A DNA stretch of 4,458 bases from IMG/VR virus record IMGVR_UViG_2740892270_000002, one strand, 5' to 3'. The position numbers and the translations under genes are program-made. The number at the start of each line of letters is the position of its first letter. Positions within the stretch are counted from its first letter, which is position 1. Under the pieces are notes generated by a model that saw only the letters and a list, made by a program, of their open reading frames with translations, was not told the DNA's origin and ran no database searches. The stretch comes from a virus (taxonomy: Duplodnaviria; Heunggongvirae; Uroviricota; Caudoviricetes). Below are positions 1-4,458 of this stretch, piece after piece.

Positions 1-13
1 GTCCAATGTGCAT

Positions 14-48
14 AAAAAAATCCGGAAACAAGTGAGCGTTTCCGGATT
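14..48 (-). terminator. Putative Rho-independent terminator downstream of the portal gene (minus-strand sense)
   Basis: Seen in sequence: perfect 11-bp inverted repeat AATCCGGAAAC (19..29) / GTTTCCGGATT (38..48) with an 8-nt loop. Read on the minus strand the hairpin is followed directly by a run of 7 T (complement of the A-run 14..20). It lies about 35 nt downstream of the portal TAA stop (81..83). On the plus strand the hairpin is followed by CTTACAC, not a T-tract, so it is unidirectional. Confidence 0.6.
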
Positions 49-80
49 CTTACACAGCCACTGGATCGGTCAACTGATCC

Positions 81-1328
81 TTAACTGATCGGCATTACAC
101 CACCGGGACGCGGATTCATATCTTCCAGGTCGCGGCAGTCATTGGAAGAGTAAATTCCCCAGTTGATCCCGGTGGCGTAGGCTTCAAAACGGGACTTCAT
201 ATCCCCGCGCAGTAACGCCCCGGCGTTAAATTTGGCGTAATAAACGCCCTGCTTACTTTTTCGTACCAGTCCGGTGTTGATCCGCTGTTCGATGCGGGTC
301 AGATACGGCACCAGTGAATAGTTGATAAATCCCAGCCCCAGCTCTTCGATATTGTTGAAGGTGGCGCGATCGGTGTTCTGCACCATGTGCAACGGCACCC
401 GGAACAGACGACAGATTTCTTCCAGCTGAAACTTGCGGGTTTCCAGGAACTGACTGTCCTCGGCGTTCAGCGCCATCGACTTCCAGTCCAGCCCCATTTC
501 CAGAATCATCGGGCGGTGAGCATTGCCAAGCCCCGTGTGACACTCCTCAAAATCTTTCTTCAGACGCTCGTAAGCATCCGGCGTGAGCTTTTGTTCCGTA
601 CGCAACACACCGGATGTCACCGCACCATTACTAAACAACCTGGCACCGTGCTCCTCGGTTGCCGCTGCCAGTGAAATGGCCTCACGCGCATACGCAATGG
701 GATTCAGCCCGACAAGTCCATCCAGCGTCAGGGTGCGCACATGCCAGATTTCATTCTGGGTCAACACATCCACGGAACCATCCGGAAACGTCACCTGATA
801 AACCGGCTGCCACTGGCTGTTCAGCTTCGGTTCCACACAGCCCGGATCTATCGGAAGAAGCTCCACCACTTCTCCCAGTGCCTTTACCTTGTAGGCGTAA
901 AAATTCCCCCGTAGACACAGGCAGACAATAACCAGCTCCCAGAATTCCTGCGGTGTCATGTAGCCATTAGGTTTTGCCGAAACCAACTTATGCAGTCGTT
1001 CATCCACCGCCCGTGTTTTCAGGGTACCGCTGATTTTGTAGAGACTGCAGGGCAGCATACCAACAGACTCTGCCAGCACCCTGACGCAAGAATAGACCGC
1101 CGTCAGGCGCATGGCCCGCTGGCTACTGATCCGCTTTCCGGTATAGGTGTCGTATGACAGCCCGATAGCATCAGCAGTTCTGCTGGCGTGGTCACCGGCA
1201 CATCGCTTTTTCGTTGAAATAATCCCGAAAAGAACACTATTTACCTCCGCCGACAGACTGCCGTGTACGGTCGAGATATCGCGCCACCAGCCACGACCAG
1301 AACAGGCACAGCGCCCCGGCAACAACAA
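81..1328 (-). CDS. Phage portal protein, HK97-family-like; stop at 81..83 is clear, start codon uncertain
   Basis: 415-aa minus-strand ORF. The motif [26 protein letters not shown] resembles the conserved N-proximal region of HK97-type portal proteins (recalled from memory, not searched), and the gene sits immediately downstream of the large terminase as in HK97-like head modules. The ORF-track start at 1326..1328 is TTG (the first three codons are TTG TTG TTG), has no good Shine-Dalgarno, and overlaps the small ORF 1237..1419 by 92 nt in another frame. The next in-frame ATG is at 1110..1112 (M73), which would remove conserved N-terminal sequence. The real start probably lies between about 1112 and 1328. 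Confidence 0.85.
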
Positions 1329-1419
1329 AACCCGCCGGGGGATAAATCAGCCAGGCACCATACGCCAGCAAAAGCGCACCCAGCACGCCCACCAGAGGCG
1401 CGAGAATCAGCATGATCAT
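1237..1419 (-). CDS. Small hypothetical membrane protein (60 aa, two predicted transmembrane helices) between large terminase and portal
   Basis: ATG start at 1417..1419 preceded by GAGGT (1424..1428), 11 nt after the large terminase TAA stop. The translation [60 protein letters not shown] has two hydrophobic stretches separated by YPPAG and a basic C-terminal tail. Codon usage (CTG, GCG, GGC rich) looks like real coding sequence. I do not recognise a named homolog. Confidence 0.5.
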
Positions 1420-1430
1420 AATTACCTCAG

Positions 1431-3164
1431 TTAAAGCGAGCGGATCCCGTAGGACTCAATGTGGTCAGACAGCGTGTCTTCTTTCTCGTACAGCATGGCT
1501 CTGCCAACCGCCATAATCAGCGCAACTGCACCATCGATTTTGTTTTCCGCCTGCTCTTTGACGGGTTTCACCACATCATCGTTACCCGGCATGTTTTTGC
1601 CGACCACGTTGCCGATACACCAGGTCATGATGGGATTGCCGTCATGATGAAAACGTCCCGATTCAATCGCTGCTTCCAGCTCTTTCATCGGATCGGACAT
1701 ATTGGTGAAGTTCTGGACGATAGTGACGGGATTCAGGTCTTCATCAGCAAGGTCATGTGACAACCCGGTCGCCCCGAAGGGGTCGATGGGTGACTCACTG
1801 ACCGGGCTGATTTTGTTCGCCGCTTTGGCCTCCTCGAGGATGTAGCGATAATCCACCTCCGCACCATCGGTAACGGTCAGAACGCCCATTTCCACCCATT
1901 TCTGAAAGCGTTCGGCTGTCCGTCGATCTTCATTTTTCTCGACGCTGTACACCGTGTCATACGGTACCCAGAAACGCGGGGCCACACTGTAGTAATGCGT
2001 TTTACCGTCAATCTCGCGGGTATAAAGTCGCGCCATGCTGTTCATATCCAGCTTACGCGCCAGGTCAAAGGCCAGAATGCACGGCTGCCCCTCGAACTGC
2101 TCAAGGGTCAGTGATTTATCCTCGCAGCTCTGCCAGCTCACCAAGTTGAAATACGCCGAACGCGCCGACACCCAGATATTGAGGTGTTTTGTTTTAAAGA
2201 CGTTTGCCAGACGGGCGTTATTTTTCGCACGCTGCTGCTGACTTAACAAAAATTCGCGATAAACCGACACGCCAATATTTGGATTGGCTTTTTCCAGCAC
2301 CTGCGGGCCGGTCCAGTCGTCACCTTCATCAACGGTATAGATGATCCCGAACAGTTCATCGTTAGGCACCGAGCCGTTGAGCATCTCGATGACTTCCCGC
2401 CGCTTGTCGTAGCACGGCCCCTCAATGTTGTACCCGGCGGTGGTGATGGCCCACATCAGTGGCTGACGTCGCGCCCCCATCCCGGTAAGCATTGTGGTAT
2501 AAAGCGCATCGGTGGCATGCTCGTGATATTCATCAACCACGGCACAGTGGGGTGATGAACCATCACCTGGGTTGCCGATCAGCGGTTCAAACCGCGCGCC
2601 ATCCTCCGGACGGTTCATGTTTGAGGCGTTAACCTCAATCCCGAACGCTTCCGTCAGCATGGGTGTGCGTTTACACATCAGTCGCGCCGGGCGAAAGACT
2701 TCCCACGCCTGTTTCTCTGTCGTGGCACCGGAATACACTTCCGCGCCAAACTCGTTATCACAGGCAAAACAATACAGGGCAACACCGGCAGAGATTGCTG
2801 ATTTGCCGTTCTTACGGGGGATTTCGGTGTACACCTCCCGGAAGCGGCGCAACCGGGTGCCTTTATTGACCCAGCCAAACGCACAGCAGATCACAAATAG
2901 CTGCCACGGCTCCAGCGTGATGGGCATCCGTTTGAATGCCCACTCCCCCTTGGTGTGCGGCAACAGCTGAATAAATTTCGCGGCCCGTTCAGCCAGGTCC
3001 TTGTCGAAGCGGTAACGAAACGACTTACTTTTTTCCGCCATCAGGTCATCAAGATGGCGCTGGCAGGCCTGAATCACAAACTGGCAGGCAACAATCTTTC
3101 CGCGCACGACATCCCGGGCATACTGATTTGCAGCATTTACGTTGGGGTAAGATTTCCGGCTCAT
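1431..3164 (-). CDS. Phage terminase large subunit (ATPase plus nuclease)
   Basis: 577-aa ORF, the size expected for a large terminase. It has a Walker-A-like segment ([12 protein letters not shown]) in the N-terminal half and an acidic C-terminal half of the kind seen in terminase nuclease domains. Its ATG (3162..3164) overlaps the small terminase TGA stop (3161..3163) as ATGA, implying translational coupling. Gene order small terminase, large terminase, portal. Confidence 0.95.
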
Positions 3165-3550
3165 GATTCGATAATTTTCAGAAACGGGTTAGTGGCTTTC
3201 TTCTGCCCCGCCAGGCCAATCAGACGCTGGCGGCTGCTGGGGTCGAGTCCGAGCATTGCCCCCGTGCTGCTCATCTCGGACTCCTGTTCTTTTTTGGCGG
3301 TCAGCTCCGGATTTTTGACCCTGCCGCCCATTGCACCGGTGATGGTGTTGCCCTGTATGGCAATATTTTTCACGGCACGTCGCCAGAACTCATAGGCCAC
3401 GCACCACCGCTCAAGTACCGCCAGGTCAGTCACGCACAGCAGGCCCTGACCGCAGAGTTCTTTGGTTGTCAGTTGCCACATGATCGTGGCGAGAGGGAGA
3501 TCTTCTTCAGCGAACCACTCTGGTGGCTCAACACCTTTGATGGGCGTAAA
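3161..3550 (-). CDS. Phage terminase small subunit (P27-family-like), 5' end lost in the assembly gap
   Basis: The C-terminal portion [31 protein letters not shown]...[33 protein letters not shown] matches the conserved core of P27-type small terminase subunits as I recall it. The reading frame stays open upstream of the ORF-track ATG (3479..3481) all the way to the N-run, encoding ...[23 protein letters not shown] before MWQL. The true start is therefore most likely inside the gap, and the 106-aa ORF-track call is truncated. Stop TGA at 3161..3163. Confidence 0.85.
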
Positions 3551-3815
3551 NNNNNNNNNNNNNNNNNNNNNNNNNNNNNNNNNNNNNNNNNNNNNNNNNN
3601 NNNNNNNNNNNNNNNNNNNNNNNNNNNNNNNNNNNNNNNNNNNNNNNNNNNNNNNNNNNNNNNNNNNNNNNNNNNNNNNNNNNNNNNNNNNNNNNNNNNN
3701 NNNNNNNNNNNNNNNNNNNNNNNNNNNNNNNNNNNNNNNNNNNNNNNNNNNNNNNNNNNNNNNNNNNNNNNNNNNNNNNNNNNNNNNNNNNNNNNNNNNN
3801 NNNNNNNNNNNNNNN
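3551..3815. other. Assembly gap (265 N)
   Basis: Uninterrupted run of n. It interrupts the HNH gene and the small terminase gene. All ORF-track translations containing X (3462..3884, 3469..3834, 3473..4030 and the tail of 3528..4028) are artefacts of reading through it. Confidence 0.99.
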
Positions 3816-4028
3816 ACGCAGACACAACTGACACAGACCTTTATCGCGCTTCAGAATACGGGCACGAATCACCGTCCATTTTGAGCCATAGCCACGCTGG
3901 TGGCGGCTCAGTCCGCGCTGGTGCTGCACCCAGCCTTCACCGCGATGTTTATCGCAGTAACCCGAACTGTCTGTGGTTGTACCTGCACATCCACGCTTAC
4001 GGCAGGCACGTGGGATTAGTGATGGCAT
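3816..4028 (-). CDS. Phage HNH endonuclease, terminase-associated type; N-terminal 71 aa only, 3' end lost in the gap
   Basis: ATG at 4026..4028 with GAGGT four nt upstream. The N-terminus MPSLIPRACRKRGCAGTTTDSSGYCDKHRGEGW carries a Cys/His-rich cluster, followed by GYGSKWTVIRARILKRDKGLCQLC, which is the typical lead-in to an HNH motif. Its position directly upstream of the small terminase gene is the standard arrangement in HK97-like cos phages. The ORF-track C-terminus YAHQRC (stop at 3528) is on the far side of the gap, so its frame is unverified and is probably small terminase sequence read in the wrong frame. Confidence 0.8.
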
Positions 4029-4070
4029 AAATACCTCATACCCTGCGAAATGTTTACCACGATAAAAAGG

Positions 4071-4458
4071 CTACTTAATGCACTGAGTGCGGATATACTC
4101 CTGTGCCCCTTCCAGTTGCATCTGCATCGTCATCAGCCGCTCTCTGAGGGTGAAATAATCCCGTTCAGCGGTGTCTGCCAGTCGGGGGCTGGTTGCATTA
4201 TCCACGCCGGAGGCGGTGGTGGCTTCACGCACTGACTGACAGACTGCTTTGATGTGCAACCGACGACGACCAGCGGCAACATCAGCGCGCAGAGTTTCAT
4301 TTTCAGCTTTCGCATCAGCTAACTCCTTCGTGTATTTAGCATCGAGTGCATTAACATCACGCTGTCTCTGCTGCATGTCAGTAATGGTTGCGTTCGCCAG
4401 CTTCAGTTCTCTTGCGTTTTTGTCGCGCTGCTCTTTGTAGGTAATGGCGTTATCACGG
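4071..4458 (-). CDS. Rz: Rz i-spanin (lysis protein), 5' end outside the window
   Basis: The translation ...[128 protein letters not shown] closely matches phage lambda Rz as I recall it. The frame is open from the window edge (4458) to the TAG stop at 4071..4073. The ORF-track start at 4376 is an internal Met. Confidence 0.95.
4133..4315 (-). CDS. Rz1: Rz1 o-spanin (outer-membrane lipoprotein), embedded in Rz in the +1 frame
   Basis: The 60-aa translation [60 protein letters not shown] has a lipobox (VVVGC) and a proline-rich stretch, closely resembling lambda Rz1. It lies entirely inside the Rz reading frame, the classic embedded-gene arrangement. Confidence 0.9.

Follow-up and report, generated by a model that had tools for sequence, protein, structure and literature searches.

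The closest described relatives of the locus analysed here are the Shigella phages SfIV, SfII and SfI and related E. coli prophages, in which the genes for an HNH endonuclease, the small (TerS) and large (TerL) terminase subunits, a ymfR-like small membrane ORF and the portal protein follow one another in the same order. In the E. coli prophage relatives the GTG start of the portal gene overlaps the stop codon of the small ORF, and in both the SfIV group and E. coli the portal is an uninterrupted protein of 413 amino acids which is followed by a prohead protease. The window, i.e. the whole stretch of 4,458 nucleotides analysed (IMG/VR record IMGVR_UViG_2740892270_000002), has this same gene order and the same overlapping GTG, and the SfIV, SfII and SfI phage records match its positions 98..3550 at 94-95% DNA identity over 3.45 kb (megablast). 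The portal copy of the window, however, is one G short and is cut by an IS4 element.

The nearest described analogue of this portal copy is beeE in e14, a cryptic prophage of E. coli K-12 (locus L016). There, ymfR occupies positions 3550..3732 and beeE positions 3732..4205, so that the last base of the ymfR stop is also the first base of the portal fragment, as in the window, and the pseudogenised aaaE and jayE flanking it represent the same kind of decay. While beeE has been cut to 157 amino acids by a different lesion, the copy described here keeps 380 codons, is split by a frameshift and ends in IS4; e14 is thus an independent decay of a related module. More generally, IS-driven pseudogenisation and prophage decay are features of Shigella genomes, and the locus is one specific instance of this process which shows no difference in kind, with an IS4 end at the portal junction, a second IS element of the IS3 family in four complete genomes and a locus that is fixed across S. 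sonnei assemblies. With a probability of about 95%, we regard the portal gene of the window as a frameshifted and IS4-truncated pseudogene of a decayed Shigella sonnei prophage, natively started at GTG.

Gene layout and the native portal start

All genes of the window are located on the minus strand. First comes an Rz-type spanin gene, represented by its 3' part (4071..4376; a Phage_lysis Pfam domain is found in matching loci), which contains a 60-aa ORF in another frame (4133..4315). This ORF has a proline-rich stretch and, in …LPLVVVGC, a signal of the lipoprotein kind, and we take it to be Rz1 in the classic nested Rz/Rz1 spanin arrangement. The spanin gene is followed by an HNH endonuclease gene starting at 4028, the 3' end of which is lost in a run of 265 Ns (3551..3815), and by the small terminase gene, the 5' part of which is hidden by the same run and the readable part of which extends to 3161. 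The large terminase subunit (1431..3164; 577 aa, with TerL_ATPase and TerL_nuclease Pfam domains) is intact. Between the two terminase genes, too, stop and start codons overlap, here as ATGA (3161..3164), which makes a second case beside the overlap of ymfR and the portal gene. The ymfR gene (1237..1419) encodes a hydrophobic small protein of 60 amino acids, and an identical entry in the protein collection bears the name YmfR [Shigella sonnei]. A ymfR gene is conserved between the terminase and portal genes in the phage group to which the window belongs, and in the E. coli relatives, where it is annotated as ymfR, its neighbours in complete genomes are annotated as terminase large subunit and phage portal protein.

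Where the window has the N run, 364 real bases are found in one draft contig and in the four complete genomes compared, one of which has 363. The gap thus falls about 99 nt short of the true length, as would be expected if its size had been estimated in scaffolding. It conceals the 3' end of the HNH gene, the intergenic region between the HNH and small terminase genes and the first ~100 bases of the latter, and the 106-aa small terminase ORF of the window (3481..3161) is a truncated reading of a 164-aa protein.

The portal pseudogene extends from 1237 to 98, from its GTG start to the IS4 junction, with a 1-nt deletion at codon 21/22 and the last 33 codons gone. Its membership of the HK97-type portal family is evident from the family models TIGR01537 (263.7 bits against a cut-off of 112, covering profile positions 3-343 of 343) and PF04860 (359 bits against a cut-off of 39.1, positions 2-321 of 321). 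An uninterrupted ORF of ~413 aa is nevertheless lacking: the frame opened by the GTG runs into a stop after 44 codons, the portal body lies in another frame, and IS4 sequence takes the place of the last 33 codons. The locus thus belongs to the family as a pseudogene and not as a functional member. Since the matches to the models do not set in before residue 39-47 of the repaired protein, the N-terminus was decided by direct alignment to homologs.

The native start codon, as read directly on the minus strand, is the GTG at 1235..1237, which overlaps the ymfR stop TAG (1239..1237) as TAGTG. It is preceded, at a spacing of 5 nt, by a Shine-Dalgarno-like GGAGGT (1243..1248) located inside the 3' end of ymfR, and this hexamer is invariant in the DNA alignment with homologs. 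Annotations of E. coli A36, STEC276 and UPEC129 show this 1-nt overlap as well, as do those of ymfR/beeE in e14 of K-12; in the first three the portal CDS encodes 413 aa and its first base is the last base of the ymfR stop, and the portal CDS of SfIV opens with the same GTGTTCTTTTC as the window. Upstream of the gap, 20 of 21 residues encoded in the GTG frame match the N-termini of the homologs, while downstream the portal continues in another frame. The GTG frame itself ends at a premature TGA (1103..1105). Its 44-aa product is absent from the protein collection searched, and could therefore not be used for counting carriers.

The frame that encodes the portal body is open from 1328 but contains no ATG, GTG or TTG between 1239 and the ATG at 1110..1112. 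Such a start-codon-free stretch of 41 codons was seen in 14% of mononucleotide shuffles, so the missing starts are in themselves unremarkable, and the significant feature is instead the switch of frame relative to the homologs. The coordinates given in the original prediction for the ymfR stop, the GTG and its TAGTG overlap, the GGAGGT, the TGA and the start-free body frame were all reproduced on the minus strand, apart from a run of A placed at 1206..1210, which lies one base off, at 1211..1207. That the GTG frame reads as a portal N-terminus is borne out by the 20 matching residues. The companion claim that the body frame encodes a portal-like N-terminus over the same stretch is mistaken, as this is an out-of-frame reading of the true N-terminal codons and only the GTG frame matches the homologs.

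The one-base deletion and the in-frame sister allele

The deletion is located at 1175..1176, where CTGGCT (Leu21-Ala22) has become CTGCT on the minus strand by loss of one G of a GG pair, the missing base being either position 3 of codon 21 or position 1 of codon 22. In the DNA alignment the window reads GAACT-GCTGATGCT against GAGCTGGCGGAGGCT in the homologs. The window is exactly one base short compared to every relative examined (3453 bases against 3454 in the alignment to SfIV), and the blastn trace against in-frame S. sonnei contigs gives '-G' after 1989 bases counted from window position 3164. When the G is re-inserted in silico, a frame of 380 codons without a stop is obtained, and the repaired portal is identical to that of E. 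coli A36 at 371 of 380 residues and to that of SfIV at 348 of 380, with the residues PAELADAIGL also present in SfIV. The intact allele GAACTGGCTGATGCT was found in seven further sequences (L015 and L017-L022); one of these, the metagenome contig L015, carries it exactly within an uninterrupted 413-aa portal starting at the TAGTG overlap. The locus thus combines an indel that breaks the frame relative to intact orthologues with a single-base repair that restores the match, as in a frameshift pseudogene.

The original prediction of a 1-nt indel between the true, GTG-started N-terminus and the portal body is hence correct, and the comparison with homologs that it had proposed places the start of the relatives at the overlapping GTG in a single frame, with none starting at the TTG cluster or at ATG 1112. 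The homopolymers to which the indel had been tentatively assigned are not the site: both the A run and the T run are identical in the window and in the homologs, and the lost G belongs to the GG dinucleotide 1176/1175. A low-quality stretch around the gap was also considered, on account of three neighbouring substitutions (GAG>GAA, GCG>GCT and GAG>GAT), and was rejected, as the same substitutions occur together with the G in L015 and in the in-frame S. sonnei contigs; they encode ELADA, which is also found in SfIV.

The possibility that the base is missing merely as an artefact of a draft assembly, the real genome having an in-frame portal start, draws on the facts that the window, a draft contig, contains an N run (3551..3815) and ends inside an IS element, and that an in-frame version of the locus is present in some S. 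sonnei assemblies. The distribution of the deletion makes this highly improbable. The exact large terminase protein of the window is listed in 4305 blocks of the collection, and ten of these places, seven of them complete chromosomes, were fetched. An identical 100-nt core carrying the deletion was present in all ten independent assemblies, and in seven of the ten the exact match covered all 1450 nt, from ymfR up to and including the IS4 junction. One of the seven complete chromosomes is CP000038.1, identified in the literature as S. sonnei Ss046 (genome of Yang et al. 2005, as cited in PMC5447701). Over 3164 nt, neither Ss046 nor the locus L008 differs from the window at any base (100% identity). 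Moreover, the deletion site is a GG dinucleotide and not a long homopolymer. An error private to the assembly of the window is, for practical purposes, excluded by its identity to independent assemblies, and the suspected draft-assembly origin of the indel can be set aside.

The in-frame version likewise has the properties of a genuine allele. The 343-aa protein encoded by the fragment that follows the deletion is found on at least 1000 contigs named S. sonnei, and the repaired, IS4-truncated protein of 385 aa, ending in VMPIS, also exists exactly, as 'portal protein [Shigella sonnei]' on 19 contigs. Six of the latter were fetched and five align across the deletion site. Over 3164 nt, the G and one SNP at window position 2144 are all that separates four of them (L017 and L020-L022) from the window, and L019 has one further SNP; L018, which has N runs within it, gave a partial alignment and carries the intact allele. 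L017 extends into IS4 with the same junction as the window. The SNP at 2144 lies in the large terminase gene and is a T (minus strand) in the window and a C in the in-frame lineage. The fact that it co-segregates with the portal G argues for a real sub-lineage, that is, for lineage structure as opposed to random error.

Two exact-pattern scans of the genome collection, directed at the deleted as well as the intact allele, gave no match, presumably because this collection holds one genome per species, without an S. sonnei-like representative. None of the complete E. coli genomes has the allele of the window, identity reaching at most 95% over a stretch of 600 nt and 94% over the 121 nt that surround the deletion. 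These genomes served only as intact outgroups.

The IS4 junction and the probable loss of the downstream module

The 3' end of the portal gene has been affected by a second lesion. Positions 1..97 of the window are the terminal 97 nt of IS4, the end of which reads TAATGCCGATCAGTTAAGG on the minus strand from 97; the stretch 1..104 matches annotated IS4 ends in E. coli genomes at 100%, and homology to portal genes begins at 98. The window copy is thus cut after codon 380, the last 33 portal codons are missing, and what looks like the portal stop codon (83..81) belongs to IS4. The identity of the element is further supported by its transposase: the IS4 of L008, 1426 bp in length (7068..8493), codes for a protein of 442 aa in which Nterm_IS4 and DDE_Tnp_1 domains are recognised. 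The original prediction of a defect in the portal gene accordingly stands as far as the indel is concerned, while the truncation of the 3' end by IS4 had been overlooked.

A simple IS4 insertion generates a direct target duplication of 11-13 bp. No repeat was found around the IS4 of L008, the flanks of which read ...GTCCCGGTGGTG and CAGCCCTTGAGC..., which is more in keeping with a deletion or recombination next to IS4 than with a simple insertion. Upstream, the context of the portal gene is that of its relatives, with the large terminase and ymfR genes; downstream, the protease is absent from the stretch read and IS4 is followed by an IS3-family element or by genes with raiA/pheL/pheA-type domains. 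The latter follow IS4 in L008 and L009, with Ribosomal_S30AE, PheL and CM_2/PDT domains identified in L008. Neither a portal C-terminus nor a prohead protease was found in the 2.6 kb read beyond the junction in any complete-genome locus, and the other head and tail genes are likewise missing from these 2.6 kb. What is left is a remnant, the rest of the prophage having been lost to a deletion associated with IS4.

The nesting of IS elements at the locus varies between S. sonnei strains. In L005, L006, L007 and L011 (~7130..9470), a transposase of the IS3 family (rve) adjoins IS4 or lies inside it on the opposite strand. The IS4 transposase has the full 442 aa in L008 and L009, 374-380 aa in L006 and L011, and is uncalled in L005 and L007.

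Origin of the pseudogene and its meaning

The notion that the portal is translated as a functional variant protein from the TTG cluster at 1320..1328 or from ATG 1112 finds some basis in the body frame, which is open from 1328, and in public annotations. The three successive TTG codons lie in the body frame inside ymfR, and this cluster provides the start in the Ss046 annotation AAZ89394.1 (414 aa, 'putative portal protein'), a reading that spans the deletion, while the ATG at 1110..1112 is the first of the body frame and the start chosen by gene callers for the 343-aa fragment. No homolog, though, begins at either codon; the residues encoded from 1328 to 1176 match no portal sequence, and the family models match the TTG-started ORF only from residue 69-77. 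The conserved GTG, the ribosome-binding site and the N-terminus sit in the other frame. A product started in this way would lack the native N-terminal 21 (TTG) or 42 (ATG 1112) residues as well as the C-terminal 33 residues, and would end in the IS4-encoded VMPIS. Such a functional variant is consequently hard to credit, the ATG is not the native start, and the initiation at the TTG codons overlapping the small ORF, raised in the original prediction, has no support among homologs in spite of its use in AAZ89394.1.

The public annotations of 81..1325 (minus strand) disagree, with 414 aa from TTG in Ss046 and 343 aa from ATG 1112 in most assemblies. The 343-aa product is called in L006-L009 and L014; in L005 the portal gene is not called at all. 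The deposited 414-aa AAZ89394.1 and the widespread 343-aa 'portal protein' are artefactual ORF calls on a pseudogene.

Even less probable is a programmed -1 ribosomal frameshift or other recoding that joins the GTG-started N-terminus to the portal body, as the two frames do overlap by 45 codons (1237..1103), the body frame would be reached by a -1 shift and a partly slippery A_AAA_AGC (1211..1205) could allow rare slippage into it, but the overlap (1237..1103) contains no canonical X_XXY_YYZ heptamer, a shift at A_AAA_AGC would replace ~11 conserved residues, all intact relatives are single-frame with the same CGAAAAAG sequence, so that a two-frame architecture is not conserved, and the sister S. 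sonnei allele is in frame. In addition, the C-terminus and the partner head genes are missing, so there is no function to rescue and nothing that selects for a rescue. The genuine frameshift or non-canonical initiation that had been suggested is thus a mutation and not a translational mechanism, the intact relatives using one frame from the same GTG.

The portal pseudogene is best understood as the result of two lesions. The window is the packaging-gene end of a prophage in Shigella sonnei which is of the SfIV/SfII/SfI type, with HK97-like head genes, and has decayed; its portal was natively started at the GTG overlapping the ymfR stop (TAGTG) behind the GGAGGT ribosome-binding site. An IS4-associated deletion would first have removed the last 33 codons, and the remaining structural module is apparently gone too. 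One G of CTGGCT (codons 21/22) would subsequently have been lost in the majority sub-lineage of S. sonnei, where the GTG frame now ends after 44 codons and the portal body is left in another frame without a proper start. This order of events, with the IS4 truncation first and the G loss later in the lineage now dominating the assemblies, is suggested by the IS4-derived C-terminus shared by the 19 in-frame contigs, and not by a rooted phylogeny. Neither of the two portal fragments is likely to make a working portal.

It is conceivable, if very doubtful, that a fragment is nonetheless expressed, whether by initiation at ATG 1112 or at the TTG codons or through rare slippage (-1) on A_AAA_AGC, and has been kept as an exapted defence element. 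The fragment would in that case interfere with the assembly of the portal ring of superinfecting SfI/SfII/SfIV-type phages, and would not be neutral debris.

As a pseudogene, the portal of S. sonnei instead reflects the routine way in which cryptic prophages decay in a pathogen rich in IS elements, and its biological importance is minor. The feature is already known in public genomes, the sequence having been public since the Ss046 genome. The G/ΔG polymorphism, together with the linked SNP at window position 2144, may serve as a small lineage marker within S. sonnei.
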